NCBI RefSeq assembly: GCF_963921235.1
Contig: NC_086108.1
Location: 21,514,001 to 21,578,000, forward strand
Length of the DNA stretch: 64,000 bases
Direction: 5' to 3'
Source: Mobula hypostoma
Lineage: Eukaryota
The notes under the pieces: model-generated
Database searches by the model: none
The model's input: only the letters and a program-made list of their open reading frames with translations
What the model was told of the DNA's origin: nothing
Position numbers and translations under genes: made by a program
Shown: piece after piece, positions 1 to 50,219 of the stretch
How positions within the stretch are numbered: the first letter of the stretch is position 1
Layout: each line of letters starts with the position of its first letter

Positions 1-1933
1 AGCATTTTTCACTTCTATTTCAGATTTTCAGCTTCAACATTTTTTAAAAAATTCTTTACTGTCAAAAAATCTCTTCAATGTTAACAATAAAATAGCCACA
101 CATGTCCCAAAAGTACAATTTCACAGAATGTCAAAATCACTCCTGAGTTGAGGGATTCCGACCACATCCTGCTCGGTTATGACCAGAATTATCACCTTCA
201 CGTAATGCTTGACAGAATCTGTACCATATTGCCAAGGAGAGTGGAGAAATAAAGAGGAATTTGCCTGTCTTTTGGGAGCTGGCTGATGGCATTGCCACAG
301 ATGTACCTTGGTGTTCCCATTCTGTCACCATGCAAAAAGATGAGACTTCTGCAGGTAAATTTTGCATTGTGCTTGTGCATAGATGCATATGATGGTAAAA
401 CTGACTTAGACCTTGATTTTGATATGCAAACAATTTGAAAGATGCCCATGTTTACAAAACTTACTCAAATATTTTACTGCACTGATGTACAATAGAGCCA
501 ACCATTTAGTTTTCACCATGTACCAAATGTGTCATCTCCAAAGATGAAGTCCCAATCAGATGTAGGTCTTGGAGAGCTGGTCCTTGTATTTGAATAATGG
601 ACAAAATTTTCTATTCCACATCCCTTTCTTGAATACATTTCTTTTAAAACCTTTTAACACACCCAAATCTAATTATGTCAAAAAGATGAACTTCAGGTCA
701 CCAAATAAAAATTCTCAACATAGAAGCTTGCAGGCCAAATATCTAAATAAAGTTGCCCAGATGATCTGGAATCAGGAATTAATTACAAATTCCAACAAAG
801 AGCTGTTCCTCATTACCAGACGCCTGAAAATCAATTTCAAACAATGAGGCTATTTCAGGGAGGAATCCAGTGTGCACAAAGAAGCACTGTGTTGCCAAAA
901 CCACTTAGCCAGATTTTAGTATTGCTGCATAAATAGTATGAAATACACAGTTGTTCACTAGTTTCCTCAGGCTATTTATTTCACATAAATAAAAAGTGAT
1001 GCCTGCTCACCATTACAATTGTTAACAACATGCGGCCCAATGCTGCTGTCTAGTCTGAAATCCTTCATTCTCACAAACAGAAGTTGTCATGCTGTACAAC
1101 GTGATCACAAATGCTTGCCATATGGACCATCATAAATCTGAGGCTTAATTTAAGCCTTGCCTTTCACCTTACCTTAGCGACCATAAGCCCAGGTGCTGAT
1201 ATTTTCAGCCAATACCAAACAATGTTCTCTTTGACCCTTTTAATACAATCCAACAATATGAAATAAAACACATCACGTTCAAGGAGGAAGGAGTAAGAAG
1301 GAAATACTTATATTAATTTCGCGCATTTAATGACTTCAGGAAAATATTTTACAGTCAACTAAATACTTTCCAATCAGAAAACTTCTGTTAAAAGTAACAG
1401 CTAATATGCATGGAGGAGTCTGACAAACCACATCTTTGTGATGTTTTGGGGGCTAAACATTGCACAGAATAACAATTAAACTCCTTGTTTTCTTTAAATA
1501 ATGCATAGTATTTTGTTGTCACACTAAGGATTCATGGATTACATCACAAACCTAAACAGATCACCATCTACTTTTCTAGTACTGCATTGTTTAAATTTAA
1601 ATTACATAATCAAGTTTCTGCAGACTGATAAAAATCAATTTTAATTTTCATATTCATTCACTATTTTACATGGATTTATGGCAAACTCCCACACAATGGC
1701 TTAACTAATTATCCACCTATCAATGAAGCACATAAAATAAGTCAACTGTAGAAAATGGAGGCCTTTCAGCTGATAGAAAACTTTGAAAGATCACTTCCTC
1801 ACACATATCTTTGTCACATATTCCAGTGAAGCACAAGTCTTTAATGCTAATGAATTGAATAATCTTAATGTAAAAATATGAATGTGTCCAAAGGAACATA
1901 TAAGCCAGTGCATTATACATCAAATAAAAACGT

Positions 1934-2359
1934 AAACAACAGGAATTCTGCAGATGCTGGAAATTCAAGCAACACACACCAAAGTTGCTGGTGAACGCAG
2001 CAGGCCAGGCAGCATCTCTAGGAAGAGGTGCAGTCGACGTTTCAGGCCGAGACCCTTCGTCAGGACTAACTGAAGGAAGAGTGAGTAAGGGATTTGAAAG
2101 CTGGAGGGGGAGGGGGAGATGCAAAATGATAGGAGAAGACAGGAGGGGGAGGGATAGAGCCAAGAGCTGGACAGGTGATAGGCAAAAGGGGATACGAGAG
2201 GATCATGGGACAGGAGGTCCGGGAAGAAAGACGGGGGGGGGACCCAGAGGATGGGCAAGAGGTATATTCAGAGGGACAGAGGGAGAAAAAGGAGAATGAG
2301 AGAAAGAATGTGTGCATAAAAATGAGTAACAGATGGGGTACGAGGGGGAGGTGGGGATA
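1934..2359 (-). mobile_element. Penelope-like element terminal (pseudo-LTR) fragment carrying a hammerhead ribozyme
   Basis: Near-identical to 11345-11750 and 43022-43445; the latter is the 3' end of the RT/GIY-YIG element at 37624. Probable TSD aaataaaaa(c/t)gt at 1922-1933 and 2360-2371. Confidence 0.85.
2032..2067 (-). ncRNA. Minimal type I hammerhead ribozyme motif
   Basis: Minus strand AGUC-CUGACGA-AGGGUCUCGGCCU-GAAAC-GUC-GACU: CUGANGA and GAAA core, stem I AGUC/GACU, GUC cleavage triplet. Confidence 0.8.
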
Positions 2360-3824
2360 AAATAAAAATGTTATTGCTTTTTAAAGTTCACATCCCTGAT
2401 AACAGAGATAGAGAAAACAGTTCTTAGAAACTAAACAGGAGACAACCAAAAGGTGAACTTCTGCGATCCAAGTCAAATATTAAAAGGCACAGACACAAGA
2501 CAGCAAGGACACCATTTTGTGCAAACCAAAACATTAGTACAAAAGGGTATTAGCTAAAATTGGAGAATGTTTCAAACTACTAAATAAACAACGTACAAAA
2601 TGATAGACATAATAAGCATTTAGAATGATTTGTATGTCAGGGATGACACAAAAAAAAGATTTCTTTGTCATGACCTGAAAGACACTGAGTGATGAAAATT
2701 ATTTCTCAGTCTTAAACGGATGAACAGGATTGGACAAGTTTACTCTCTCACCTGTATTGAGAATATTCAATAGCAAACCAGGTTTGCTTGCCCAACTGAT
2801 GAATCAAATATACAATTTCCAGGGCCGTAACATGATCTGAAACCTTTCCAATGCAACATATTTGCAATATATGTCAAGCTTATCAGCTAGCATTGCCAAT
2901 TTACATTACTTGAAAACTAGCAACAGCACTGATTTAGGAGATGTCTCTTTTCATCAACAGCTTTTACCCTCACTGCCTATTTACCACACTGTGAAGCATT
3001 AATTTTCCAGATCCTTGCTCAAACTCAAAATCCACCACTTCATGCTTAGAAAATAATCAACTTGAATTTATCAAACTCACTGACACAGATGTTAATACCG
3101 TGAACCAACATCTATCTGTCTTAACTGAGCTGATACGTTCACATAACAGAAAGGAAAAATAATAGGATTTTATTTACTGAGTTTTGTGTTGCTTAAGTTA
3201 ATGTTATTGTATTTATCATGGCTCCATTATATGAAATCTGAGACCATTGAATCTCCACTTCTCTTCAGAAGTCCAACTTCCCACTCCTGACACCAAACCT
3301 GTGGGAGTCCCTGAAGCTTTCAGTACTGCATCCAGTTGAAATGCTCAACAGAACATGTTTTTAAGTACCAACAACTGATTCTTACAATGTTCTAATAGTC
3401 TAATTTTAGTATCACCGTTGAGTTACCCATCTTTGGCTAATCGAATATCATCAACGAAATTCCAACAATGGCTTTTTTTCTGCTATTGCCCATAGGACCA
3501 ATTCATTCAGAAACAACAAATAATTTGGAAAAGATAACTATTATCATGGTTTTGTTTTACTACGGTTGTCAGAGCAACAAAGAGAAAGCATGTACTTATC
3601 TTCACAACAAAAACATAGACTTACCCTCCGAAATGATATCAGATAAAATGTATCTCCTTTCCTACGGATGGCTTCAAAGAAGCTTGGATAATGTCTGTCT
3701 GGCACATAATAAACTTGCAATTCATTCCCTGAGTTTCTGTGAAGGTGAGAAGTATGGGTTAAAATACGAGAAACATGAGGCAATACTGCTAAAAGTATGA
3801 TCTAAAAGGAAAAAAATATGTAAG

Positions 3825-5420
3825 ACCATAAGACACAGGAGAATTAGGCCATTCAGCACATCAATTCTGCTCCACCATTCCATCACGGCTAATTTATTAT
3901 CCCTCTCAATTCCATTCTCCTACCTTTGCCCCGTAACCCCCAACACCCTGACTAATCAAAAACCTATCAACTTCCACGTTAAATATACTTAATGACTTGG
4001 CCTTCACAGAATTTATTGTGGCAATAAATTCTATAAATCTGTCTAAGTCCCTCTGCAGACTCCCTGCCTATCCAGCTATCTTCCTGTCATCTGCAAATGT
4101 GGCCACAAAGCCATCAGTTCAGACATCTAAATCTTCGATATACACAACACCACTAGTCACCGGGAGCCAACCAGAAAGTCCCCCTTTATTCCCAGTACCA
4201 GACTCCTGCTAGTCAGCCAGTCTTCTATTTGTGCCAGTGTCTTTCCTATAATATCATAGGTCTTATCTTGTTAAGCAGCCTCATGTGCAGCATTTTATCA
4301 AGGCCCTTCTGAAAATCCAAATAAACAACATCCATTACCTGTCCTTTGTCTACCTTGCCTGTTATTTCCTCAAAGAATTCCAACAGATTTGTCAGGCAAG
4401 ATTTCCCCTTAAGGAAACCATGCTGACTTTGGCCTACTTTATCTTGTACTTCCAAATACCCGAACCTCTTCCTTCATAATCAATTCCAATATCTTCCCCA
4501 ACCACTGAACTCAGGCTAATTAGCCAAGAACTTCCTTTCTTATGTCTCTATCTCTTCTTAAAGAATGGATTGACATTTGCAATTTTCCAGTTCCCTGGAA
4601 CTATTCCGAGTCTAGTGACTCTTGAAAGATCACTGCTAATGCCTCCACAATCTCTTAAGCTACCTCTTCTAGAACCCTAAAGTGTAGTACATCTGGTCCT
4701 GGTAACTTAATTACCTTCAGACCTTTCAGCTTCCCAAGTACCTTCCCCTTAGTAATAGCAGCTAAACACATTTCTGCCCCGACACTCTCAAATTACTGGA
4801 ATACTGTCAGTGCCTTCCATAGTGATGACAGATGCAAAGTACTTATTAAGTTTGTCCACCATTTTTTGTCCCCCATTACTACCTCTCCAGCAGTCCAATA
4901 CCCACTCTCGCCTCTCCTTTACTCTTTACATATTGAAAACAACCTTTGGTATCCTCTTTTATATTATTAGCTCACTTACCTTCATATTTCATCATTTCTC
5001 TCATGGTTTTTTCAGTTGCCTTCTGTTGGTTTTCAAAAGCTTCCTAATCTAACTTCACACTAATTTTTGCTATATTATATGCCCCATCTTTGGCTTTTAT
5101 GCTGTCTTTGATTTCCTTCGTCAGCCACAGTTGCCTCATCCACCCTTTAGAATACTCATTTCGTCTTTGGGATACATCTTTCCTGCGTCATCCGAATTTT
5201 TCCCATTACTGTTCTGCCATTATCCCTGCTAGTGTCCCTTTGCAATAACTTTGGCCAGCTCTTCCCTCATGCCTCTGTAATTCCCTTGACTCCACTGTAA
5301 TAGTGATACATCTGACTTTATCTTCACCCTCTCAAATAGCATGGTGAATTCTATCATATTATGATCACTGCTTCGTAATGGTTCCTCTACCTTAAGCTCT
5401 GTAATCAAAACTAGTCATAA
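3825..5420 (-). mobile_element. Degenerate CR1 LINE fragments (ORF2 and 3' end)
   Basis: ORF 4246..4455 has SQHGFLKGKSCLTNLLEFFEE...VDVVYLDF-like motifs; 3' UTR-like sequence near 3825-4030; many stops and deletions. Confidence 0.85.
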
Positions 5421-6314
5421 AGAAGAAAACCAATTAATCAATCTCTGAACATTCGCAAAGTTCTAACTTGGAAATGAAAAATATTGGTTTAAGAAGGAAG
5501 ATGATTGACGATTGAGTGCTTTAACAAAATTTATTCCAAATAAATTGCTTCCACACATTTTAGATTTCTGAAGCATGATTTGTTCTGCCTGAACTGTTGT
5601 TTTTACATTGAGACAAACTTATGTCTTTGTAAAGAAGTGACATATAGGCATGATCATCAAGATATGGATGTCAGTCAAGATTTTTCCCTCATTTCCAATT
5701 GATGCCAACTATTGGTCAATATTTCCATATGCAAGCTATGTCATCAACATAATTAGCTGATGTCTTTCACTCAACACAAATATTAGAAAATGTGTAAAAT
5801 TTTCTGCAATCAGTTGATTTTCCAAACAGCAACATTGAATCGCAGCCAGTTCCAAGAGACATTTCCTTCTATAACCAGCATCTAAATTCCTCTTCAAGAG
5901 AACCAGATGCTGGTTCTGGAAGGAAGTATCTGAAATTTTTATCATTACTCCTGCCCAAGATAGCTTTAAGGTATTAATCACTGCACAGTGCAATGCTTTG
6001 GGATTCCAGCCTTAAACTAGCTGTATATTCTGCAAACCTGGACTGACACGACAGTTCACTCAGGAATGCAGCAGTTCAGGAAAGAAGCAACAGCTTATTG
6101 TGATTAGCTACTCATTATGGGAGTTATGCTTGGGTACAGCAGGCTCATGAAGATAAATAATACTTACTAGTCATCATATACAGAATGGTAAACATGGACG
6201 ACAAATGGGCTTCACCAATTAAAGATTATAAAATGCTCAATTACACAGTCTGAAGAGCAAAATACATGGCAAAGGACCCACAATCAATTTGTGCACATTC
6301 TGGTCAGTCTATAG

Positions 6315-7614: not shown

Positions 7615-8035
7615 TACAAGGTAATAAAAAATCAAAGCAGGAAATTACTTTGTTTATTACAGTCGTCTATAGAGTCATGGATTTTCTGATTACACAGAGA
7701 AATTGAAATTAGATTAGATTAGATTCAACTTAATTGTCATTGTGCTGAGTACAGATACAAAGCCAATGAAATGCAATTAAGACACTGAGCCTCGTGATAC
7801 ACACGCGCCGCAGCCATTTTATCCTTAGCAAAGAAAAATGGTTCACTTACAATCCTGACAATCAGAAACTTAGTGTCTTTACCCAGCATTGGTGTACCGG
7901 TTCTTTATATACAAGTGTGTTTAAATGAGGGGAATGGTTTCCTTTGTTAAGTAGTTTTCTTTGTTTTTTTTATACAAGGTTAATCAAGCCATTCAGAGTG
8001 GACTGTAAAACAGTTATTTGTCATTGAGTACAATA

Positions 8036-8313
8036 AATAAAGGCATCTGTTAGTCTTTCGAGACCATGGACCAAGTCTTCACTCTCCAGGGTGCAGGCCT
8101 GGGCAGGTTGTACAGAAGACTGGCAGTTGCCCATGCTGCAAGTCTCCCCTCTCCACGACACCGATGTTGTCCAAGGGAAGGGCATTAGGACCCATAAAGC
8201 TTGGCACCAGTGTCGTCGCAGAGCACTGTGTGATTAAGTGCCTTGGCTGGGGCTCGAACTCACAACCTTCAGATCGCTAGTCGAACGCCTTAATCACTTG
8301 GCCACGTGCCCAC
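8036..8313 (-). mobile_element. tRNA-derived SINE
   Basis: Minus-strand head gggcacgtggccaagtgattaaggcg...gtgagttcgagcccc with Pol III A and B boxes; 14-bp TSD cattga(g/a)tacaata at 8022-8035 and 8314-8327. Confidence 0.85.
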
Positions 8314-10448
8314 CATTGAATACAATACCACTGTTTTAATTCCAGTGATAGATTTCTTTTCCTCCAGGTCATAGCTGGTGGAGCTTGTTATTATTTTGGC
8401 TTTATTTGAAAATACTCGCGTTAATGGTTAATTATCCACTAATGAGAACCAACTAGGAGTAGACAAGCTCAGATATAACTTCCTTGCTACACAAGGATAT
8501 CATAATGAATTGCGTCCGTTCAAGGACTTACACTGTTTCAGTTCCTTTCTTACTTGGTTTAATTTGCTTTTCAACCATTGCTAGACACAATGTTATACCT
8601 TTAATCTTAATTTTCACTCTTCTATCAAGGTGGTTAAGAGTTTATTATTAGTGAAAAAAATCTACAAATGCACTTAATATATTAATTTTTTTCTGTTAAT
8701 TACCTCCAGTAAGTTTTTTCTTATGATTCCGGCTGTATTTCTTTTTCTTCTATTTGGCTTCAGTTTTCTTTTGACATATATGGCAATTTTTGCAATGTCC
8801 TTTATTATTCTGACTAATTTCTCTCACCTTCTTCCCCCAACAGATTTAGTAACCCATCAGTGTTCACATCTGCATATCTTATAAACTCAATCCAATTATG
8901 AAATCACCCAGTTATGAACTCACTCTCAACATTTAGCTTGTATTGTTAAGGTATTTAATTCACCAATAGTACACATTTTCTAGAGTACTAGTTGTTAATT
9001 TTCCCAAGTCTTCATTTTTAAAATTGTCTTAAATGCTGTTATCTGAGATCATTGAACAATTGCTGTCATCGAGTGTGCAATAACTTAATTTTTGGAAGTA
9101 TTTACCTGATGTGGCAGTAACTCCTTTGTTGTGCAAGTGCCACTGCATTCACCATGTTTTGCCCTTTTGGCAATAATCAAAACCTTTCAACGTAAGTAAT
9201 TGTTATCAAAGTTGAGCAGGAAACTAATTCCCTACATTATCCCAACTTGAATGCTCAAATCACTAGTCCTCAAATGAACACTGAGGTGGTCCAGCAAATC
9301 AAATTTTGAGAAAGATAATTGAACAATAAATATGAACTGTGTCAACAACACCTACATCCCAAGAACTGGATTGAAACTCACTGAGAAAGACTAACTGTTC
9401 AATGTGGAACTTGCAGTATTAACACCCACGAGGTGACTCCTGCAATTATACTGGGTTTCCCAACTTTGATCAAATATTCTCCTTACCCAGTCTTGAGAAT
9501 GGAAATAGTTACTTAAAATACAGAAACAAGACAAGTTTCCCCTTTTGTTTTAAATTGTGTTTGCTTAAATGATTTTAAATTAGTCATTTTAAGCAATTTG
9601 TTTTGTCTTAATTTTTAGTGACTAAAATATCCATTTTAATTGTTTTCCTAACAAAATGATTCTGAACTCCCTCAACATTCTGAAGGATTCTGTACACTAA
9701 CAGCTAACACGGGTGGAACGAGCTTTGTCAACTCTTTTCTTCCATTTCATGAAGCTTATTCTAGCTGACTATAGACAGCAGTTACAAAGCAAGGCTCCGC
9801 CATCAGACAGACCAAGCCCCTTGAGATCCAGCTAGTTCAATTTCTGGATACTGATCAGGTAACAAATGAGCAACAAATGAGGCTGGCAAGTCACATTCAA
9901 CTTGCTCACAACCAATATCTTTAAACATGGGTCCATCACTTCCATGGAGACCATTACTTTCAAACTTTGCACAGACAAATTCCTCCAAGTCTTTCTACAT
10001 CAATGGGAATTTCTGGGCATTTTCCCTCCTTTTCTGAAAAATTTTCCACAGACGTTATGCTTCCTATTTGTCTGGATCAGTTAAGCACTTCCCTTCATAA
10101 TCTTGAAAAAACTGAATTACATCACCTCAGTCTCATTTTCCTTCCAAGAATATAAATTGTATATCTGGAATCTTGCTCTTTCCTTGCTTCTGCATTCTGT
10201 TAGATTGAAAAGCTCACAAAACTCTCCTCATTTTCAAATGATGCTTGAGAAGCTCAGGCTCTACAGTGACTTTGTTATTTTGTGCTACCAGTTTGAGAGA
10301 GCTTATTCAGATTCCGCCCTATCAAAAAAAAACAAATGTCTCATTGTAAGCATTAAAATCAAGTATATTTGCATATTCACAATTGAGCTGGAGATCTAAA
10401 TAAAAACATGATGGGTCATGAGTCACCACTGAGCTTGAAGTTGGGAAT

Positions 10449-11344: not shown

Positions 11345-11750
11345 GTTATTTATTTTTTGACACATATTCTTTCTCTCACTCTCCTTTTTCTCCCTCTGTC
11401 CCTCTGACTATACCCCTTGCCCATCCTCTGGGTTCCCCCCCCCGCCCTTGTCTTTCTTCCCAGACCTCCTGTCCCATGATCCTCTCGTATCCCCTTTGCC
11501 AATCACCTGTCCAGCTCTTGGCTCCATCCCTCCCACTCCTGTCTTCTCCTATCATTTTGGATCTCCCCCCTCCCCCTCCCACTTTCAAATCTCTTACTAA
11601 CTCTTCCTTCAGTTAGTCCTGACGAAGGGTCTCGGCCTGAAATGTCGACTGTTCCTCTTCCTAGAGATGCTGCCTGGCCTGCTGCGTTCACCAGCAACTT
11701 TGATGTGTGTTGCTTGAATTTCCAGCGTCTGCAGAATTCCTGTTGTTTAC
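11345..11750 (+). mobile_element. Penelope-like pseudo-LTR fragment
   Basis: Reverse complement of the 1934-2359 family sequence. Confidence 0.85.
11615..11650 (+). ncRNA. Minimal hammerhead ribozyme motif (variant GAAAU)
   Basis: agtc-ctgacga-agggtctcggcct-gaaa-tgtc-gact; C>T change in the stem III palindrome. Confidence 0.65.
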
Positions 11751-11869
11751 AAAATTAAAACTTGCTGAATGTAATCTGTCCCATAATTTCAAGTTTCTTT
11801 ACAGACAAAGAGCTTATAATGATCAAAACTAGTTCTTTATATCGCTTGCAGTATAGTGTCAAAATGGTT

Positions 11870-13559: not shown

Positions 13560-13825
13560 CAAAACTGCAGGAAACATAAAGTTGTGATAGTAGGGGATTT
13601 TAATTTTCCACATATTGATTGGGACTCCCATACTGTTAACGGTCTAGATGGGTTAGAGTTTGTAAAATGTGTTCAGGAAAGTTTTCTCAATCAATATATA
13701 GAGGTACCAACTAGAGAGGATGCAATATTAGATCTCTTATTAGGAAATGAGTTAAGACAGGTGACGGAAGTGTATGTAGTGGAACACTTTGGTTCCAGTG
13801 ATCATAACACCATTAGATTCAACTT
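13560..13825 (+). mobile_element. CR1 LINE, 5' part (APE domain), interrupted by the L1 insertion
   Basis: VVIVGDFNFPHIDW...EHFGSSDHNTIRFN; continues at 25446 (FNLIMDKDRSGPRVEV). Confidence 0.9.
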
Positions 13826-14461
13826 TTGTTTTTGAAAATCAACAAAAAAATATATTAAAATAGTCAAATCAATATATCAACATATACAATAAGAGTTAAA
13901 CTATCAAATAACTGATTAACCAAGCTAAACAATATACTAATAATAATAAGAAAAAACAAAATGTTAAAACTATTAGTTTTTTTTGGAAAAAGGAAAGAAG
14001 GAAAAAAGAACCCCTAATAACTAAAACAAAAAAAACCCTACTAACCGAAAAAAAAACGAGAAAAAAAAACCATTGGGAGCACAACCCCGGAGCTATATGC
14101 CATACAAGCTTCTATAAAAGAAAAATATCAATCCACCAACCAAATCCAATTACACAAGAATCAGAAGGGGACCATCTTAACTAACTCAAATCAAATGATA
14201 GTAGCGGGCAAAAGAATCCCACCTTTTCTCAAAGTCAAATCGAAGATCAAAAGTTCGACTTCTAATTTTCTCCAAACTAAGACATAATTATCACCTGAGA
14301 GAACCATTGTATCAAAGTGGGAACAGAGGCATCTTTCCATTTCAATAAAATAGCCCTTCTGGCCAATAATGTGACAAATGCAATTACATGTTGGTCTGAT
14401 ATAGAATTACCATGAATATATTGGGGAATTATACCAAACAAAACTGTCAATTTATTAGGTT

Positions 14462-15313
14462 TGTTACGTACCCCGTAACTGGGTTGCCAAACCAGCAGAA
14501 ATGGATCACTCAGTTGGAGTCTGGATTACTAGAACTAAGAAAGTTTTATTAAAGAAACAAGCAACACAGTACTTTAATCAAAAGGATAATGAATGCAACA
14601 GTTCAGCAATGATAAACATACCAGTACACAGAATTAAGATAACAGGATCAATCAAGCTCTATCGTTGTCTAGGGGTAAATGACCAGTTTCAAAGTGACGC
14701 AGGGTTCAGTTCAATTTAGTTCAGTTCAGTTCGCAGTAATCGCTGCCGTGGCGATGGACAGTGGGAGGAAGCAGAGAGAGAGCAAAACGAATGAATATTC
14801 AAGGCTTCCACACAGACCTTCGCAGTCAGCTTTTGGGCGAGTCCTTTGTGATGTCATCTGAGGTCACCGACCGTGACCCCTCCATTTCCAGATACGATCG
14901 TTTCCCTGCGGTGAACCTGGCACCCAGGCAAGGGTGGACACACACCAGGTTCCCGCCGATCGTGCCTTTCCACCCTGTGCGTTTATGGCCCGGTACTTCC
15001 CACCGACTTGTGAGAGACGCACCGCTTCCAGGGTCTTGTTACCTTGGGTGTCGTGTGTGTGTCCTGCCTTAGTGAACCTGTCCCTTTTTATCCCCCTGCT
15101 GGGGTATCGCCTGTCCATCACTTCAAACAGTTCAGGGTTCAAAGGGGGAGCCGATCTTGACAGCTCTCCTTCCTTCATTAACATCTCCAAATGCTGCTCC
15201 ATTGTTTTCCTTATCTCTCTCTCTCTCCTGAAGACAGGTGGCAGACCAACTGCTGATTCCACTGGTGCCAGCCCAGGCCAGCTTCATCTTAATCTCTGTG
15301 TATTCTTGTCACA
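14462..15313 (-). mobile_element. Solo LTR of the Gmr1-like Gypsy family found at 60160-64000
   Basis: tgtt...caca termini, 4-bp TSD ggtt (14458-14461 and 15314-15317), colinear with 60160-61058. Confidence 0.92.
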
Positions 15314-15751
15314 GGTTGTAAATTAGTTTTTAAAGCTTTAGAAATTATAGAGAAAATAGATTTCCAAAACTGTTTCAATACAGAACACGACCAAAACATA
15401 TGTGTCAATATAGCCGAGTCAGTTTTACACCTATCACACGGACTATCAACATTAGGAAATGTCTTAGACCGTCTCCCTTTTGTCAAATAGTAACATTGTA
15501 CAATTTTAAACTGAATTAGAGAGTGACTGGCACAAATCAAAGAAGAGTTAACCAACTTCAAACTTCACAACCAATCCTCTGTTATCAAGGTCATGTTAAG
15601 CTCTCTTTCCCAATCTTGCTTAATCTTAAGTAAAGGATAATAATATTGTGGTAATAGTAAATTATAAATTTTCCCAATAAAACCTTTCACTAAAGGATTC
15701 ATTTTAAAAAAATGTCTAACAGGTCAGAATCTTGTATATATGGAAAATTAA

Positions 15752-18700
15752 CCATATAACCATATAACAATTACAGCACAGAAACAGGCCATCTTGGCCC
15801 TTCTAGTCCATGCCGAACTCTTACTCTCACCTAGTCCCACCGAACTGCACTCAGCCCATAACCCTCTATTCCTTTCCTGTCCATATATCTATCCAATTTA
15901 ACTTTAAACGACAACATCGAACCTGCCTCAACCACTTCTGCTGGAAGCTCGTTCCACACAGCTACCACTCTCTGAGTAAAGAAGTTCCCCCTCATGTTAC
16001 CCCTAAACTTTTGCCCTTTAACTCTCAACTCATGTCCTCTTGTTTGAATCTCCCCCACTCTCAATGGAAAAAGCCTATCCACGTCAACTCTATCAATCCC
16101 CCTCATAATTTTAAACACCTCTATCAAGTCCCCCCTCAACCTTCTACGCTCCAAAGAATAAAGACCTAACTTGTTCAACCTTTCTCTGTCACTTAGGAGA
16201 TGAAACCCAGGCAACATTTTAGTAAATCTCCTCTGTACTCTCTCAATTTTATTGACATCTTTCCTATAATTCGGTGACCAGAACTGTACACAATACTCCA
16301 AATTTGGCCTTACCAATGCCTTATACAATTTCAACATTACATCCCAACTCCTATACTCAATGCTCTGATTAATAAAGGCCAGCATACCAAAAGCTTTCGA
16401 GATTCCACCTTCAGGGAACTATGCATCATTATTCCTAGATCCCTCTGTTCTACAGCATTCTTCAATGCCCTACCACTTACCATGTATGTCCTATTTTGAT
16501 TAATCCTACCAAAATGTAGCACTTCACATTAAACTCCATCTGCCATCTTTCAGCCCATTCTTCTAACTGGTCTAAATCTCTCTGCAAGCTTTGAAAACCT
16601 ACTTCATTATCCACAACACCACCTATCTTAGTATCATCGGCATACTTACTAATCCAATTTACCACCCCATCATCCAGATCATTAATATATGTGACAAACA
16701 ACATTGGACCCAGTACAGATCCCTGAGGCACACCGCTACACACCCTTCTCCAATCTGACACACAGTTATCCACCACTACTCTCTGGTGTCTCCCATCCAT
16801 CCACTGCTGAATCCATTTTACTACTTCCATATTAATGCCTAACAATTGAACCTTCCTAACATTCCGTGTGGAACCTTGTCAAAGGCCTTACTGAAGTCCA
16901 TATAGACAACATCCACTGCTTTACCCTCATCAACTTTCTTAGTAACCTCATCAAAAAATTCAATAAGATTTGTCAAACATGACCTTCCACGCACAAATCC
17001 ATGTTGACGGTTCCTAATCAGATCCTGTCTATCCAGATAATTATATATACCATCTCTAAGAATACTTTCCATCAATTTACCCACCACTGACATCAAACTC
17101 ACAGGCCGATAATTGCTAGATTTACTCTTAGAACCCTTTTCAAACAATGGAACCACATGAGCAATATGCCAATCCTCCGGCACCATCCCCGTTTCTAATG
17201 ACATTTGAAATATTTCTGTCAGTGCCCCTGCTATTCCCACACTAACTTCCCTCAAGGTCCTAGGGAATATCTTGTCCGGACTTATCCAGTTTTATATTCC
17301 TTAAAAGCGCCAGTACTTCCTCTTCTTTAATTGTCATACTTTCCATAACTACCCTACTTGTTTCCTTTACCTGACACAATTCAATATCCTTCTCCTTAGT
17401 GAATATCAAAGAAAAGAAATTGTTCAAAATCTCCCCCATCTCTTTTGGCTCCGCACATAGCCGTCCACTCTGATTCTCTAAGGGACCAATTTTATCCCTC
17501 ACTATCCTTTTGCTATTAACATAACTGAGGAAACTTTCGATTTGGATTTATTTTCACCTTACTTGCCAAAGCAGCCTCGTATCTTCTTTTAGCTTTTCTA
17601 ATTTCTTTCTTAAGATTCTTTTTACATTCTTTATATTCCTCGAGTACCTCATTAACTCCAAGCTGCCTATATTTATTGCCTCTCTTTTTCCAAACCAAGT
17701 TTCCAATATCCCTTGAAAACCATGGCTCTCTCAAACTTTTAACCTTTCCTTTCAACCTAACAGGAACATAAAGATCCTGCACCCTCAAAATTTCAACTTT
17801 AAATGGCCTCCACTTCTCTATTACATCCTTCCCATAAAACAAATTGTCCCAATCCCCTCCTTCTAAAACCTTTTGCATCTCCCCAAAGTTAGCCTTTCTC
17901 CAATCAAAAATCTCAATCCTAGGTCCAGTCCTATCTTCCTCCATAATTATATTGAAACTAATGATATTGTGATCACTGGACCCGAAGTGCTCCCCAACAC
18001 ATACCTCCGTCACCTGCCCTACCTCATTCCCTAACAGGAGATCCAACACTGCCCCTTCTCTCGTTGCTACCTCTATGTATCACGCCAAAAAACTATCTTG
18101 CACACATTTGACAAACTCCAAACCATCCAGCCCTTTTACAGAATGGGTTTCCCAGTCTACGTGTGGAAAATTAGAATCTCCCACAATCACAACCTTGTGC
18201 TTACTACAAATATCTGCTATCTCCTTACAAATTTGCTCCTCCAGTTCTTGGTCCCCATATAATACACCCCTATAAGCGTCACAACACCTTACCTATTCCG
18301 TAATTCCACCCAAATAGCCTCCCTAGACGAGTCCACTAATCTACCCTGCCAGAGCACTGCTGTTATATAATCTCTGACAAGCAATGCAACACCTCCACCT
18401 CTTGCCCCTCTTATTCTATCACACCTGAAGCAAAGACATCCCGGAATATTTAGTGCCAATCACACCCCTCCTGCAACCACGTTTCACTAATAGCTACAAC
18501 ATCATATTTCCAGGTATCAATCTATGCTCTAAACTCATCCACCTTTCTTACAATGCTCCTAGCATTAAAATAGATGCATTTAAGAAACTCTCCACCTCCC
18601 ACTCTCCGTTTATCCTTAATGGAGCAAACAACTTTTTTATCTTTTTCTTCCTTGTCCCCTACATCTTTGGTCTGAGTGTTCCTGATCTCTGTCCCCTGCC

Positions 18701-20126
18701 TATCCTCCCTCACACACTGTCTACCTGCTTTCATTTTTTTGTGAACTAACCTCCTCTCTCCTAGTCTCTTCAATTTGATTCCCTCCCCCCAACCATTCTA
18801 GTTTAAAGTCATCTCAGTAGCCCTCGCAAATCTCCCCGCCAGGATATTGGTCCCCCTAGGATTCAAGTGTAACCCGTCCTTTTTGTACAGGTCACACCTG
18901 TGCCAAGAGAGGTCCCAATGATCCAGAAACTTGAATCCCTGCCCCCTGCTCCAATCCCTCAGCCACGCATTTATCCTCCACCTCACTGCATTCCTACATC
19001 GCTGTCGCGTGGCACAGGCAGTAATCCCGAGATTACTACCTTTGCGGTCCTTTTTCTCAACTCCCTTCCTAATTCCTTATATTCTTCTTTCAGGACCTCT
19101 CCCCTTTTCCTACCTATGTCATTGGTACCTATATGCACCATGACCTCTGGCTCCTCACCCTCCCACTTCAGGATCTCTTGGACGTGATCAGAAACATCCC
19201 AGACCCTGGCACCAGGGAGGCAAACTACCATCCGGGTCTCCAGACTGCATCCACAGAATCGTCTATCTGACCCCCTAACTATCGAGTCCCCTATTACTAC
19301 TGCCCTCCTCTTCCTTTCCCTACCCTTCTGAGCTACAGGGACGGACTCTGTCCCGAAGGTTCGGTCATTGTTGCTTCCCCCAGGTATGCTGTCTCCCCAA
19401 ACAGTACTCAAACAGGAGTACTTATTGTCAAGGAGCACAGCCACAGGGGTACTCTCTATTACCTGATTCTTCCTATTCCCCCTCCTAACCGTGACCCATT
19501 TGTCTGCCTCCCGTGGCCCCGGTGTGACCACCTGCCTGTAACTCCTCTCTATCAACTCCTCGCTCTCCCTGACAAGACAAAGGTCATCGAGCTGCAGCTC
19601 CAGTTCCCTAACACGGTCTCTTAGGAGCTGCATCTTGACGCACCTGGCGCAGATGTGAACGTCCGGGAGGCTGGGAGACTCCACGACCTCCCACATCTGG
19701 CACTGAGAACAACAAGCTGCCTTCACACTCATACTTCCCTCTCTCCTCAAATAACAACAAAAAATGAATACCAATCCTTCCTTGCCCCGCCTGTTTCCAC
19801 CTAAGCCCATTGAGCCAAAGCCCTTGAGCCTTCACTCTGCTCCTGACTCATTCCGCAGCCCTCAAACTATGCCGCCCGCTGTATAAGGCTCTGTTCCTTT
19901 TAAATCTTCTGCACTTCACTCCCTGATGTCACACGCCTGCGCAGTCCCACCTCTCTGAACACAGATGAAAAAAACCCGAAAAACTCAAAAAAGGCTTCTT
20001 CCGCACTCCTGCTCCAATTCTCAGACTTCCTTCTCCAAATTAAACCCAAATCAGGATTTGTGTCTTTTTAAACCTTCCGTGCTCCACTCCCCGACGTCAC
20101 ACGCCTGCGCAGTCCCACCTCTCTCT
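15752..20126 (-). mobile_element. Near full-length CR1 LINE (ORF1 zinc finger/leucine zipper + SGNH esterase; ORF2 APE + RT), frameshifted
   Basis: ORF1 CSQCQMWE, IGDSIVRG, HIGTNDI, DGLH; ORF2 CIYFNARS, SDHN, YMDFSKAFDKV, GVPQGSVLGP, KYADDTK; (accatata)n 3' tail at about 15752. Confidence 0.95.
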
Positions 20127-20615
20127 AAAGTTACTTATTCTTGTAAGAAATGTCTGACCTGAAGATAATGCAAGAAATGTGAGTGCAAGAGAGAATATTT
20201 AGTTACTAATTTCTCAAAAGACATCAATCGACCTTCTTAAAACAGATCCATGAAGGAATAAACTCCTTTATTCCTCCAAAGAAAAAAGGTAGGATCACTA
20301 AGTGAAGGTTTAGATAAATTAAGCTAAGAAGGTTAAATTTTTTAAAATTAAAAAAATTACAAAACTGGTACCAAATTCGTAATGACTGCTTAATCATAGG
20401 ATATAAATTTAGAATAGAAATTTTGGATAGTTGTACAGGTAAAGACGCTCCTAATAACGAAGTTAAGTAAAATTGTTTCACGGCTTTCAGTTCCAAATCA
20501 ACCCAAGGTGGTCGTTCATTTTTATCAGTTTAATTTAACTAAGAACACACATAATGTATATTAACCGCCTAATAATACATTCTTAAATTAGGCAGAGCAA
20601 GACCTCCATCTTTTT

Positions 20616-23600
20616 CCAGCAATGGAAAGGGAAAAACTTCGAAAGAAAAATCGGAAGATATGCCTGTCTGGGCTGAGCGTTTAGAACGTGCGTTGATGGC
20701 TCTTGACAAGAAAGTAGACAATAACACTTCTGAGATGAAGTCGTTCTGACAGAGTTTTCAGTTTGTAGAGGAAAATATTATTTCCTTGAATACTGAGCTT
20801 AAAGAGTCGAAGCGTCAGACAGCAAATATTTCAGCTCGCTTGGAACAGGATAGTCGATTTAGAAGCAAGATCTCGTCGGAATAACATTCGAATTGTTGGA
20901 CTGAAGGAAGGTTCTGAGAGTGGGAATTTATTGGACTATTTTGCTAATTTGTTTCAATTGCTGTTTCCGGATATTCTACCTCAGCCTCCCGCTATTGAGG
21001 GAGCACACAGAATTTTCTGAAATCTCAAGATTCAGCTAAATCATGGGTAATTTTGGTCAGTTTTCTTAGTTTTATAGTTAAAGACCAAATCATAAAATGT
21101 GCAAGAAAACAGAGAGTTTTTAAATTTAATGGCTCCGAGATTCGTTTTTATGAAGATTATCCACGGGAAGTTATGGAACAGCGGATCAAATTTGTTCCAG
21201 CTATGAAGATAGCCCATGCTAAGGGATTATTCCCATCACTTCGCTATCCAGCCTGGTTATTTCCTAAAGATTCAACTCCATGTGTTTTTTTGGATCCCCA
21301 AGAGGCATTGGACTATGTTAATTCTATTTTGGAGGTGGCTGAGGTCTGAATGGTATTAGGGCTGCTGAATAACTTTTCGAAAGAAAACAGGCTTTGAAGA
21401 TTTCTGATATGTTGAAGATATCCTTTGATCGATGGACTATTTAAAGAAGATGTGAGCTTCTTGATTTGACTGATGGATGACTTTTCCGAAGTCTGCTTGG
21501 TTTACTGAGTGAATTAACACAACAGACAGATTGTTAACTGGTTTGATTATCTGTTTTTATTTTTCCTTTTCTTCATTAATTAAGTGATAGTTTATATAGA
21601 CTTTTGCTTATATACATATATAGCGAGGAGTGCTGAGTAAATAGTTAATTAGTTTTAGTTTTTCCTGTCAAAAACAGTGTTTTTTCATCAGGCAGCAAGT
21701 CAAAGGGATAATGGTGCCGATTTTTTTCGTTAGAGATTATATTGTTTAGGTCTAATTTTATTGCTTTGACGTCTCTAGAGAATGTTTTTGCATTCCCCAG
21801 TTTATTTTTAATGATTAAGTATAAACACCATTTTTTTTCTCTGTAGGGCTTTATCATCTTGGGACCGTGTGTTTTTTTTGTAAAGGGGAGGGGGGAATTA
21901 AGAAAAACTTTTAAAATTACTATTTAAATTGAGTAGCTCGCAGAGTTCTGTTTCTTTTTTCTTTTCCTATGGGGATGCATTCCGGCTTATTTCTTCTTTT
22001 TGTCGGATTTCTATCTTTTGGGATGGTGGGAGGATTGGGGGTAGTATTGAATTATAGGTCTTACAGTTGGATTAATTTTATTTTTTTTCGTTTTTTTTCT
22101 CTTCTCGTATTTTTTCCCATTATGGAGTTCCAGAGCATGCGTGTTTTCAATATGGTTATACTCATCACCGCCATTTTTGATTAGCCCGCATTGGTATGCA
22201 CGTATTTTCGTGTTAAAAAAAATATTTTATGGCAGTTAAACAGATAAACGTTATCAGTTGGAACGTACGTGGCTGGAATCACCCTATTAAGCAAAATAAG
22301 ATTTTTAAGACATTGGAAGGACCTTCAATATCATGCCACTTGTCAAAATAAAACAAAGGGGGTATCTATTTTTATTAAATCTAATATTTTATTTATCCAA
22401 GAAGATATCGTGTCAGATATTAATGGTAGATTTTTAATTGTCAAAGGAACAATTTGTAATAGAAAAATTGCTCTGGTTGATCTATATGGACCTAATGTAG
22501 GTGATCTTTCTTTTTTTAAAAATGTAAACAACAGGAATTCTGCAGATGCTGGAAATTCAAGCAACACACATCAAAGTTGCTGGTGAACGCAGCAGGCCAG
22601 GCAAGAATAATATGTTGGATCTGGAGGCTGGTGGGGTGGTAGGTGAGGACCAGGGGAACCCTATTCCTAGTGGGGTGGCGGGAGGATGGAGTGAGAGCAG
22701 ATGTACGTGAAATGGGGGAGATGCGTTTAAGAGCAGAGTTGATAGTGGAGGAAGGGAAGCCCCTTTCTTTAAAAAAGGAAGACATCTCCCTCATCCTAGA
22801 TAGAATAATATGTTGGACCCGGAGGTTGGTGGGGTGGTAGGTGAGGACCAGGGGAACCCTATTCCTAGTGGGGTGGCGGGAGGATGGAGTGAGAGCAGAT
22901 GTACGTGAAATAGGGGAGATGCGTTTAAGAGCAGAGTTGATAGTGGAGGAAGGGAAGCCCCTTTCTTTAAAAAAGGAAGACATCTCCCTCGTCCTAGATA
23001 GAATAATATGTTGGACCTGGAGGCTGGTGGGGTGGTAGGTGAGGACCAGGGGAACCCTATTCCTAGTGGGGTGGCAGGAGGATGGAGTGAGAGCAGATGT
23101 ACGTGAAATGGGGGAGATGCGTTTAAGAGCAGAGTTGATAGTGGAGGAAGGGAAGCCCCTTTCTTTAAAAAAGGAAGACATCTCCCTCGTCCTAGATTTT
23201 TAGAATAATATGTTGGACCCGGAGGCTGGTGGGGTGCCTGGCCTGCTGCGTTTACCAGCAACTTTGATGTGTGTTGATTGTTTTCTTAAAAATGTATCTG
23301 GTTTATTGCCAGATTTAAATGAATAAATGTTGTTAATGGGTGGTGATTTTAACTCTTGTTTAAATCCTTTGATTGACAAGAGTTCAACCAATCAGCGGCT
23401 TCCGAGTTGTTCAGCATCACTTATTAACTCTTTTTTAATTGATTATGGTTTGATCGAAATCTGGAGAAATTTAAATCCTGATGATAGAGATTATTCTTTT
23501 TATTCACATGCTCATAAAAAATATTCGAGAATTGATTATTTTATAGCTGATTTTCAATTTTTATCCAAAGTCCAGAAATGTGAATATGACGCTATCGCCG

Positions 23601-25445
23601 TTTCGGATCATGCGCCTTTAAGCTTAACTTTTGAATTGAATGATGTTGGTATTATAAATTTGGCTTGGTGTTTTCCAGAAAATTTATTACTCAGATAAAA
23701 GATTTTTTTCATTTTAATAATACGGAGATGTGTCAAAATTGATCATATGGAATGAACTTAAAGCATATTTGCGAGATCAGATAATCTGCTATTTGGCTAA
23801 GCTTAAGAAACAGACAAAAATAGAGTTAGATAAGATTTCAAAACAAATTAAAGACTTGGATAATATTTATGCAGTTTCTCCAAACATTGATTTATTTAAA
23901 CAAAGGGTTGAACTTCAATCACAATATAATTTACTATTAACTTATCCTATTGAAAGAAATTTGCTTAAATTAAAAAGTCTATTTTATATGTTTGGAGACA
24001 AAAATAATAAGCTATTAGCATCCCAGTTAAAGGCAACTGGAGCTAAAAGACAAATTTTAAAAATTCGTAAGGGAGATGGTAGACATCAATAAAATTTTTC
24101 AGGACTTTTACAGTGAACTCTATAAATCTCAGTTTCCAGCTGATCCTTCTAAAATGAATGCCTTTTTACAAAGACTGATTTTCCTAGAATATCTGTTGAA
24201 GATCAACAAACTCTTGATACTCCTATTACTGAAAAGGAAATTCAGAAAGCTATTCTTTCAATGCAATCTGGTAAAGCTCCTGGATTGGATGGTTTTTCCT
24301 GTCGGATTTTATTAAAAAATTTGAAGAATTGCTTTCTCCATGTATGTTGGAAATGCTCAAAGATTCTTTTTTGTTAGAATTATCTCCCACATTTTATGAA
24401 GCTTCTATTTCTTTAATTCTTAAGAAAGATAAAGACCCTACTGACTGCGCTTCATATAGACCTATTTCACTATTAAATGTGGATGCTAAAATTCTTTCAA
24501 AAATAATGGCTAATCGACTGGAGAATATTCTAGCTAAAATTATTTCTCAGGACCAAGCAGGTTTTATAAAAGGCCGTTATTCCTTCTCTAATACTCGGAG
24601 ACTGTTAAATGTTATATACTCATCCCTGTCTAAGACTCCCCAATGTGTTGTTTCTCTTGATGCTGAAAAGGCATTTGATAGAGTTGAATGGAAATACTTA
24701 TTTAACGTTTTAGAGAAATTCAACATCAGTACTAATTTAAATAAGTGGATTAGAATGATATAAAAAAGCCCTATTGCCACAGTTATTACTAATAATTGCA
24801 GATCTCCACTTTTTCGACTTTCACGGGGTACAAGACAAGGATGTCCATTAAGTCCCCTGTTATTTAATTTGATGTTGGAACCTTTGGCTTTTGCACTTCG
24901 TGAAGCTAAAGATATTCAAGGAATTTCCATAAATGGGACTATTCATAAGATGTCCCTTTATGCTGATGATCTTTTAGTTTATGTTTCGAGTCCTGAAGAA
25001 TCCATTCCTAGTGTATTGAAATTATTAAATGAATTTGGAAAGTTTTCGGGATATAAATCAAACCTTAATTAAAGTTAACTATTTCCTTTAAATGATTCTG
25101 CTTCTATATAAGATGACATTCATTTTAAACATACGGACTCGTTCAAATATTTTGGTACTATCATCACTAAAAATTATGGAGACCTTTATAGAGCTAATTT
25201 GGTTCCCTTAGTGGATTTTATGAAGCAAATATCTTGTAGATGGAATCCACTTACACTTTCATTAGCTGGCTGAATTCATGCAGTTACCAAAATTCAACAA
25301 AATTTTTATATGTATTTCAAAATATTCCTATTTTTTAACTAAGAAGTTTTTTGATCAGGTTGATTCTATTATTTCATCTTTTGTTTGGAATAATAAGAGA
25401 CCAAGAATTGGAAAAATATCATTTACAAAAATCAAAAAAGAATAT
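20616..25445 (+). mobile_element. L1-clade LINE, 5' part (ORF1, spacer, ORF2 APE + RT), inverted relative to its 3' part
   Basis: ORF1 RSRRNNIRIVGL and IRFYEDYP; ORF2 starts MAVKQINVISWNVRG near 22229; GGDFN, SRIDYF, SDHAP, SLDAEKAFDRV, RQGCPLSPLLF, LYADD; multiple frameshifts. Confidence 0.92.
22527..23280 (-). mobile_element. Penelope-derived insertion: 198-bp tandem unit x3.2 between inverted pseudo-LTR ends
   Basis: Units start at 22604, 22802, 23000 and 23202 and encode EMSSFFKERGFPSSTINSALKRISP...; about 16-bp TSD tttt(t/c)ttaaaaatgta at 22511-22526 and 23281-23296. Confidence 0.9.
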
Positions 25446-26580
25446 ATTCAACTTGATCATGGATAAAGATAGATCTGGTCCTCGGGTTGAGGTTCTAAAC
25501 TAGAAAGAGGCCACATTTGAAGAAACGAGAAAGGATCTAAAAAGCATGGATTGGGACAGGTTGTTCTCTGGCAAGGATGTGATTGGATGTGGGAGGCCTT
25601 CAAAGGAGAAATTCTGAGAGTGCAGAGTTCATATGTTACTGTCAGGATTAAAGGCAAAGTGAATAAGAATAAGGAACCTTGGTTCTCAAGGGATATTGGA
25701 ACTCTGATAAAGAAGAAGAGAGAGATGTATGACATGTATAGGAAACAGGGAACAAATAAGGTGCTTGAGGAGAAAAAAGTACAAAAAAATTCTTAAGAAA
25801 GAAATCAGGGGGGCTAAAAGAAGACATGAGGTTGCTTTGGCAGTCAAGGTGAAGGATAATCCAAAGAGCTTCTACAGGTATATTAAGAGCAAAAGGAAAG
25901 TAAGGAATAAAATTGGTCCTCTTGAAGATCAGAGTGGTTGGCTATATATGGAACCAAAAGAAATGAGGGAGATCTTAAATGGGTTTTTTGCATCTGTATT
26001 TACTAAGGAAACTGGCATGGAGTCTATGCAAATAAGGCAAACAAGTAGTGAGGTCATGGAACCTATACAGACTGAGTAGGAGGAGGTGCTTGCTATCTTG
26101 AGGCAAATCAAAGAAGATAAATCCCCAGGACCTGACAGGATATTCCCTCGGATCTTGAAGGAGACTAGTGTTGAAATTGCAGGGGCCCTGGCAGATATAT
26201 TTAAAATGTCGATATCTACGGGTGAGGTGCTGGAGGATTGGAGGATAGCTCATGTTGTTCCGTTGTTTTCCACTGAGGCTAGGGGAGAAAAAAAACCAGA
26301 GGACATGGGTTAAGGGTGAAGGGGGAAAAGTTTAAAAGGAACATTAGAGGGGGCTTCTTCACACAGAGTGGTGGGAGTGTGGAATGAGCTGCCAGATAAA
26401 GTAGTAAATGCGGGCTCACTTTTAACATTTAAGAAAAACTGGGACAGGTACACGGATGAGAGGTGTATGGAGGGATATGGTCCAGGTGCAGGTCAGTGGG
26501 ACTAGGCAGAAAAGTGGTTCGGCACAGCCAAGGTGGGCCAAAAGGCCTGTTTCTGTGCTGTAATGTTCTATGGTTATATG
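25446..26580 (+). mobile_element. CR1 LINE, 3' part, with most of RT deleted
   Basis: Continuation of 13560-13825; jumps from WRIAHVVPLF directly to the C-terminal region near 26265; ctatggttatatg tail. Confidence 0.9.
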
Positions 26581-37623: not shown

Positions 37624-39395
37624 GGGGTGCTGTTGTAGTCTGGTGTACCGACCTCTAACTTGCCGAGGCACAGCGACAACTCGCGGATACCTCCTCTTAT
37701 TTACCCCTCGATCATGACTCCACTAAGGAGCACCAGGCCATTATCTCCCACACCATCACCAACTTTATCAGCTCAGGGGATCTCCCATGCACTGCTACCA
37801 ACCTTATAGTTCCCACACCCCGTACTTCCCGTTTCTATCTCCTACCCAAGATCCACAAACTGCCTGTCCAGGTAGACCCATTGTCTAAGCTTGCTCCTGC
37901 CCCACTGAACTCATTTCTGCATACCTCGACACTGTTTTATTCCCCCCTTGTTCAATCCCTTCCCACTTCGTGAGTCATCTCATGCTCTGAATTTTTTCAA
38001 TGAATTTAAGTTCCCTGGCCCCCACCGCTTTATTTTCACCATGGATGTCCAGTCCGTATATACCTCCATCCCCCACGAGGAAGATCTCAAAGCTCTCCGC
38101 TTCTTTTTGGATTCCAGACCTAACCAGTTCCCCTCTACCATCACTCTCCTCCGTCTAGCGGAATTAGTCCTTATTCTTAATTTCTCCCTTGGCTTCTCCC
38201 ACTTCCTCCAAACTAAAGGTGTAGCCATGGGCACCCGTATGGGTCCCAGCTATGCCTGCCTTTTTGTTGGCTTTGTGGAACAATCCATGTTCCAAGCCTA
38301 TACAGGTATCTGCCCACCACTTTTCCTTCGCTACCGACGACTGCATTGGCGCTGCTTCCTGCACGCATGCTGAGCTCGTTGACTTCATTAACTTTGCCTC
38401 CAACTTTCACCCTGCCCTTAAGTTTACCTGGTTCATTTCCGACACCTTCCTCCCCTTTCTTGATCTTTCTGTCTCTATCTCTGGAGACAGCTTATCTACT
38501 AATGTCTACTATAAGCCTACGGACTCTCACAGCTACCTGAACTATTCCTCTTCCCACCCTGTCTTTTGTAAAGATGCCACTTCCTTCTCACAATTCCTCT
38601 GTCTCCGCCGCATCTGCTCTCAGGATGAGGCTTTTCATTCCAGGACAAAGGAGATGTCCTCCTTTTTTAAAGAAAGGGGTTTCCCTTCCTCCACCATCAA
38701 CTCTGCTCTCAAACACATCTCTCCCATTTCACGCACATCTGCTCTCACCTTATCCTCCTGCCACCCGACTAGGAATAGGGTTCCCCTTGTCCTCACCTAC
38801 CACCCCACCAGCCTCCGGGTCCAACATATTATTCTCCGTAACTTCTGCCACCTCCAATGGGATCCCACCACTAAGCACATCTTTCCCTCCCCCCCCCTTT
38901 ACTCCTTTCCACAGCAATCGCTCCCTATGCGACTCCCTTGTCCATTTGTTCCCCCCATCCCTTCCCACTGATCTCCCTCCCGGGACTTATCCTTGTAAGC
39001 GGAACAAGTGTTACACATGCCCTTACACTTCCTCCCTCACCACCATTCAGGGCCTCAGACAATCCTTCCAGGTGAGACGACACTTCACCTGTTAGTCGGC
39101 TGGTGTGATATACTGTGTCCGGTGCTCCTAATGCGGTCTTCTATATATTGGCGAGACCCAACGCAGGCTGAGAGGTCGTTTCGCTGAACACCGATGCTCT
39201 GTATGCCAGAAAAAGCAGGATCTTCCAGTGGCCACACATTTTAATTCCACGTCCCATTCCCATTCTGATATGTCTATCCACGGCCTCCTCTATTGTCAAG
39301 ATGAAGCCACACTCAGGTTGGAGGAACAACACTTTATATTCCGTCTGGGTAGCCTCCAACCTAATGGCATGAACATTGACTTCTCTAACTTCCGT
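37624..39395 (+). mobile_element. Penelope-like element RT + GIY-YIG endonuclease, frameshifted
   Basis: FYLLPKIHK, FTMDVQSVYTSIP, GVAMGTRMGPSYA, PFLDL, YYKPTDSH, CKRNKCYTC, VIYCVRC...LLYIGET; continues at 43022 after the CR1 insertion. Confidence 0.92.
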
Positions 39396-48587: not shown

Positions 48588-48589
48588 TA

Positions 48590-50160: not shown

Positions 50161-50219
50161 GCTGTTGATAAATTTACTCAGCAGCCTGTGTGATGATCAA
50201 AACTGACTGATCAGTAGTA

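Follow-up and report, generated by a model that had tools for sequence, protein, structure and literature searches.

The window, the stretch of 64,000 nucleotides of Mobula hypostoma DNA analysed here, contains one L1 copy at positions 13826-25445, inserted into a CR1 element. As listed in Table 1, the copy is enclosed by two repeats of the word attcaactt and is interrupted by three later insertions. Coordinates within the element refer to a natural full-length sister copy, L038, of 5,903 nt. As a correction to the earlier note, the sense strand of the element is the minus strand of the window, the plus piece being the inverted one. Read along the minus strand, the locus runs from a target-site duplication (TSD) through 2-4 extra bases, reference positions 4337 back to 171, the inversion junction and reference positions 4330 to 5878 to the other TSD. 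With the later insertions removed, the inverted L1 part measured ~4.1 kb and the forward part ~1.55 kb. An L1 block of 11.6 kb with a 5' inversion of ~4.8 kb had been proposed. The TSD-flanked block and the inversion between the TSDs were both recovered, while the sizes had to be reduced, since ~6 kb of the block consists of the three later insertions, which inflate the forward part by ~5.2 kb and the inverted part by 751 bp. The inverted sequence had also been said to reach back into ORF1, which was the case, with the start corrected to ~40 nt past the ORF1 ATG (reference 132).

Table 1. Features of the L1 insertion and its target CR1 in the window
Feature	Position	Strand	Evidence
5'-truncated host CR1 on the left side of the target, endonuclease part of ORF2	13563-13816	+	Exo_endo_phos_2, E 2e-11
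TSD attcaactt, at the L1 3' end	13817-13825		Exact match to 25446-25454
L1 3' end, reference 5263-5878, short A-rich end	13826-14461	-	Mapping to L038
852-bp insertion, TG...CA ends, 4-bp duplication GGTT	14462-15313		Mapping; relatives elsewhere in L029 and L030
L1 ORF2 C-terminal part, reference 4829-5267	15314-15750	-	zf-RVT, E 4e-4, short of the curated cut-off
Apparently full-length CR1, 4,385 bp, esterase-type ORF1 and reverse transcriptase (RT)	15751-20135	-	Lipase_GDSL_2, E 3e-5; RVT_1, E 2e-11
Start of the forward (putatively first-primed) L1 segment, reference 4330-4822	20136-20615	-	Mapping to L038
Inversion junction, 1-nt microhomology	20615-20616		Breakpoint comparison
Inverted L1: ORF1 from ~codon 14, spacer, start of ORF2 endonuclease, reference 171-2136	20616-22526	+	Mapping
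751-bp insertion, three and a bit 198-bp repeats, flanking duplication of at least 11 nt	22527-23277		Sequence, mapping
Inverted L1: ORF2 through RT to the putative internal priming site, reference 2118-4337	23278-25443	+	RVT_1, E 3e-21
Extra bases AT separating the inverted segment from the TSD (up to 4 in an alternative reading)	25444-25445		Sequence
TSD attcaactt, at the L1 5' side	25446-25454		Second repeat
Host CR1, on to its 3' end, internal deletion	25455-26566	+	Mapping to natural CR1 copies

The 852-bp insertion is presumably solo-LTR-like, a label taken from its end pattern, and the 751-bp insertion, labelled from motifs, is what we take to be Penelope-like. The frame of its 198-bp repeat gave no meaningful Pfam match. 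About 6 bp of L1 sequence was lost at the insertion site of the nested CR1 (15751-20135), and a small deletion was found near 22300 in the inverted segment 20616-22526. At its 3' end the window copy stops 25 nt before the usual end of the family, earlier than any other of the 81 sampled copies that reach reference 5870. At the 5' junction, the extra bases and the end of the TSD form the 10-bp palindrome gaatatattc. The window copy is a dead L1 without evident function.

The best PDB matches of the window RT were human L1 ORF2p (E ~1e-28), with R2 at ~1e-4. Among sister copies, L038 matched Exo_endo_phos at E 5e-8, and the ORF1 of L023 matched human L1 ORF1p (E 6e-10, residues 69-251). Transposase_22 was found by Pfam in two of four proteins, only below cut-off, and the ORF1 fragment of the window gave no Pfam match. 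The element has an ORF2 with an APE endonuclease and an RT closest to L1, and an ORF1 of the L1 type (coiled coil, RRM, CTD), and it was assigned to the L1 clade of LINEs on these grounds. The ORF1 type together with the scattered targets would point to L1 proper rather than to the Tx1 branch. The family does not carry a 3' poly(A) tail of the mammalian L1 type: among 48 tails read, 33 continue as TGAA-type repeats, 3 have an A-run of at least 5 and 12 have other sequences. The 5' UTR of the family is only ~131 nt long. The window copy differs by ~7-8% from its closest relatives among the sampled copies.

The target site was read from the interrupted CR1. Window positions 13563-13825 correspond to positions 1515-1777 of a natural CR1 copy, and 13563-13825 and 25447-26268 are contiguous on natural CR1 copies with an overlap of 8 nt, which bears out the claim that the duplication splits one CR1 ORF2. 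The 9-bp TSD that had been described was also present. Paralogous empty sites could be read in the 16 of 39 CR1 loci that fitted the reading pattern, and in all 16 the first letter of the word, A in both repeats of the window, was T. Since both repeats carry a letter private to the target, the duplicated word behaves as a true target-site duplication. When flanks were shuffled as a control, mismatched pairs shared a word of at least 8 nt in only 13 of 957 cases.

KDGGLALPNL opens the minus-strand L1 piece at 20615, and RIGK..LQKSKK closes the plus-strand piece. On L038 the inner breakpoints of the two pieces are adjacent and overlap by 8 nt (reference 4330-4337). Each piece is the direct continuation of the other, as had been claimed, and the ~7 nt (aaaaaga) seen at both breakpoints correspond to this overlap. 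The earlier note had named non-adjacent pieces, or an origin of the two pieces from different subfamilies, as results that would count against it. Both checks came out in its favour: besides the adjacency on L038, the pieces behave as one subfamily, since the identity ranks of the two window parts correlated over 39 copies with a rho of 0.66, and when each of the other 39 copies served as test copy the median was 0.64. Furthermore, the duplicated word shows at both breakpoints a minority variant (an A-run, a single G and an A) that was present in 4 of 49 matched stretches. This is one position, and it weakly suggests a single source. The common subfamily and the shared variant are consistent with both segments having come from one RNA and do not prove it.

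To survey the family, three genome searches were run, one with an ORF2 query and the others with 3' queries, each contributing its best 40 of 1,768-2,413 candidates and not a random sample. Together they yielded 93 distinct copies besides that of the window, all of which were mapped; the sample is biased to long copies near the subfamily of the window copy. Among these best-ranked copies, 9 of 93 showed the 5'-inverted layout (9.7%, 95% interval 4.5-17.6%). Six were among the 39 copies of the ORF2 query (L014, L020, L022, L031, L045 and L047) and three among the 54 copies added by the 3' queries (L057, L081 and L093); each 3' search counted whole gave 3 of 39. The inverted parts of the nine copies ranged from 39 nt to 2.4 kb. 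With the window copy included, the inner breakpoints, taken from BLAST ends with microhomology included, lay between -12 and +17 nt in all ten inverted copies (+8 nt in the window copy), and the 3'-most end of the inverted part faced the outer flank in all ten.

All nine other inverted copies had a TSD, the lengths being 11, 9, 8, 15, 15, 4, 14, 12 and 10 nt. Those of 8 and 9 nt were read by eye, as was the lengthening of one to 14 nt, which includes a single mismatch. The automatic search gave only 4 nt for L047, and the 4-nt case may be a chance match. A 7-mer given by the automatic search for L022 was false and was discarded. The 3' piece of L045 now lies on the opposite strand ~3.5 kb on, the result of a later rearrangement, and its TSD was counted nonetheless. 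The TSD count left out 13 of 94 L1 copies, in which the 3' end was not within the fetched stretch.

Under twin priming, the terminal letters of the TSD are expected to match the RNA at the internal priming site. Primer-template microhomology of at least 2 nt was found in seven of the nine other inverted copies, or 7/10 with the window copy. The last TSD letters matched the template at 32 of 52 positions, compared with 16-20 expected (P 5e-5 to 1e-3), and this match counts for twin priming. When the 4-nt TSD case was left out and the window copy was included, P was 4e-4 to 0.011. The null model used here allows for chance extension of the TSD and replaced a random-register null that ignored it. 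The window copy itself showed no primer microhomology, with at most 3 of 6 letters matching in any of 15 registers. At the inversion junction, microhomology was 1 nt in the window copy and 2-3 nt in five of the ten copies; its sum of 15 against 7.4-8.6 expected was marginal (P 0.02-0.06). The proposal that this L1 lineage also twin-primes thus gained support from the same geometry in 9 of 93 other sampled copies and from primer microhomology at the level of the family.

CR1 copies served as a control. None of 65 copies from two CR1 families (26 of the 39 matches of one family search and 39 of 39 of the other) was 5'-inverted, against 9 of 93 for L1 (Fisher p 0.011). The contrast was not significant (p 0.09) when L1 was represented by the 54 additional copies of the 3' queries alone. 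Reverse-strand matches in five of the 65 CR1 loci (L124, L127, L147, L155 and L169) were rejected as inversions, each being separated from the 5' end or non-adjacent on the reference.

The twin-priming model reportedly goes back to Ostertag and Kazazian in 2001. We consider the block to be a single dead L1 insertion whose 5' 4.1 kb were inverted within one 9-bp TSD, most likely by twin priming, with a probability of roughly 0.88. The endonuclease would have nicked the plus strand of the window at actt/ga, inside the older CR1. From the nicked end, cDNA synthesis would have started on the A-rich 3' end of the L1 RNA, at a point ~25 nt before its usual end, and ~1.55 kb would have been copied; the 25-nt-short 3' end of the window copy is likely explained by such priming within the A-rich stretch. 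The other strand would have been cut 9 nt away before copying was finished; its 3' end would then have primed near position 4337 of that RNA and been extended toward the 5' end of the RNA as far as 171. The two cDNAs would then have been joined by end-joining with 1-nt microhomology, leaving the duplication of 7-8 nt. The solo-LTR-like element, the CR1 and the Penelope-like piece, labels that we assume as above, would have been inserted afterwards. The family appears to repeat such inversion in ~10% of the sampled long copies. Geometry, TSD, adjacency, recurrence and family-level primer microhomology were observed on end products, and it is from end products only that we infer in which order the nicks were made, that the second end primed on the RNA used by the first, and that end-joining united the two cDNAs. 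Among the inverted copies, that of the window fits least neatly, with no primer microhomology, 2-4 extra bases and a 3' end that is 25 nt short. Its TSD of 9 nt, below the 10-20 nt given for human inversions in PMC4245944, also counts against twin priming.

A near-full-length L1 may instead have been inserted normally, its 5' part being inverted later by break repair. The age of the window copy, seen in its distance from its closest relatives and in its three later insertions, would allow for this, as would its lack of primer microhomology, and the displaced 3' piece of L045 shows that later rearrangement occurs in the family. However, such an event needs a break at the edge of the TSD, and likewise in nine other copies; neither breakpoint has inverted repeats that could drive it, no CR1 copy was inverted, and primer microhomology is found at the family level. 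We consider this course very unlikely. No better placed is a single insertion event in which another RNA or cDNA supplied the inverted part, or a template switch or snap-back of the first cDNA produced it, rather than priming by the second DNA end. Some untemplated or fold-back synthesis is suggested by the palindromic extra bases at the 5' junction, and snap-back junctions have been described for R2 transgenes (PMC11371274). Snap-back would, however, duplicate sequence of the forward part, whereas in 10/10 copies the inverted part lies wholly 5' of the forward part with an overlap of at most 17 nt, and a second RNA would give no reason for adjacent breakpoints.

An assembly artefact is the least probable explanation, and we regard it as highly improbable. 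In its favour, none of the Logan contig pieces listed for six runs bridged the inversion junction, but the contigs there are mostly 31-90 nt long, too short to decide the matter, and the runs may be from other individuals or species; each of the 21 runs listed contains less than half of the sampled words. A misjoin would nevertheless not give an exact TSD with a private letter together with an 8-nt duplication, and the same layout was found on eight different contigs.

Twin priming is known from mammals, and what would be new here is its occurrence in a non-mammalian L1 lineage, which is well supported for the family as a whole. The Mobula family resembles the 5'-inverted L1 copies of human and chimpanzee (PMC2912911, PMC4245944, PMC11702581) in the order TSD, inverted part, forward part and TSD, in inner breakpoints that adjoin apart from small gaps or duplications, in primer-template microhomology in ~70% of cases and in L1-type ORF1p and ORF2p. 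For de novo human inversions, TSDs of 12-18 bp, 5' microhomology of at least 2 nt in 71%, and inner breakpoints with short deletions in 22 of 32 and duplications in 10 of 32 were given in PMC11702581; a primer match is accordingly not obligatory in human either. The rate differs, at ~10% for the Mobula family compared with 30.9% of 2,068 L1 insertions of humans and chimpanzees (PMC2912911, Table 2), and so does the sampling behind the two rates. The TSDs of the Mobula family are 4-15 nt long, four of ten being below 10 nt, against the human range of PMC4245944. Its tail is usually a short TGAA-type repeat, in contrast to the long poly(A) of human L1, and its host is non-mammalian rather than mammalian, in keeping with the young CR1 families of the genome, which therian mammals lack.

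In the cell-culture work of PMC4245944, inversions were reported only for human L1 in human cells and in one Nimb-2_DR insert in chicken cells; human L1 gave none in DT40 cells, and neither did ZfL2-1. There, inversion was proposed to depend on the element, the host and the length of the overhang, and short overhangs were suggested to be unable to prime. Zebrafish Nimb-2_DR in chicken DT40 cells is likewise a non-mammalian LINE inverting in a non-mammalian cell. However, it is one engineered culture insert of a different LINE (PMC4245944), whereas the Mobula L1 provides ten germline genomic cases. Our literature search found no genomic survey of 5'-inverted non-mammalian L1, PMC4476161, PMC13174262 and PMC6895275 dealing with mammals or R2; the original and key comparative papers were beyond its reach and may report cases.

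Twin priming likely also occurs in the Mobula L1 lineage. More tentatively, and at slightly below even odds, it may be a routine ancestral property of the vertebrate L1 machinery rather than a mammalian speciality, undocumented so far at the genome level, with CR1 in the same germline being without it. If so, a non-mammalian L1 without long poly(A) and with overhangs of 8-9 nt inverts in about one tenth of its long copies, which would count against a need for mammalian host factors or for overhangs of at least 10 nt. When the second strand is cleaved during L1 integration is read out mainly through 5' inversion. With inverted L1 copies with short TSDs and a CR1 control in one genome, effects of the element and of the host could be separated by counting, and a natural inverted family would date the inversion behaviour far deeper than mammals.

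In the L1 copy at L045, one of the fetched genomic loci, the 5' inversion extends to the extreme 5' end of the element (positions 3-1057 of the full-length reference copy). The 3' piece of this copy now lies on the opposite strand, approximately 3.5 kb on, which implies a second, later inversion, and the 15-nt TSD word follows the piece. In the L1 copy at L063 (element-sense 7782-8944), both ends were intact, reference positions 196-4944 were absent, and the TSD was 11 bp. Internal deletions of 80-470 nt were observed in further copies (L079, L080, L084, L085, L089 and L091). Splicing, template jumps or later deletion could be the sources of such gaps.

Features located in the window and at other L1 loci
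Feature	Location	Status
5'-inverted L1 copy with displaced 3' piece	L045 3221-6870 and L130 1374-2249	
Insert with slightly more than three tandem units of 198 bp	window 22527-23277	
Nested inverted repeats forming a large imperfect palindrome	window 47765-51334	
Nested CR1 family, second copy	window 39396-42378	
852-bp element, TG...CA ends, 4-bp target duplication	window 14462-15313	observation only

The 198-bp units, 97-98% alike, belong to an insert that we take to be Penelope-like; it carries short inverted end repeats, and related pieces were found at 1925-2116, 11566-11760 and 38634-38835 of the window. The 852-bp element, presumably solo-LTR-like, is also represented at window 60160-60674 and at loci L029 and L030. 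The second CR1 copy was 72-96% alike to the nested CR1 stretch 15755-19332, and the arms of the nested inverted repeats (111-202 nt) were 85-94% complementary.

Short TGAA-type repeats, not poly(A), were the usual 3' end of the L1 family (33 of 48 tails read, L011-L103). Many TSDs at these loci begin with the same letters as these 3' ends, which suggests that the end of the L1 RNA pairs with the target.
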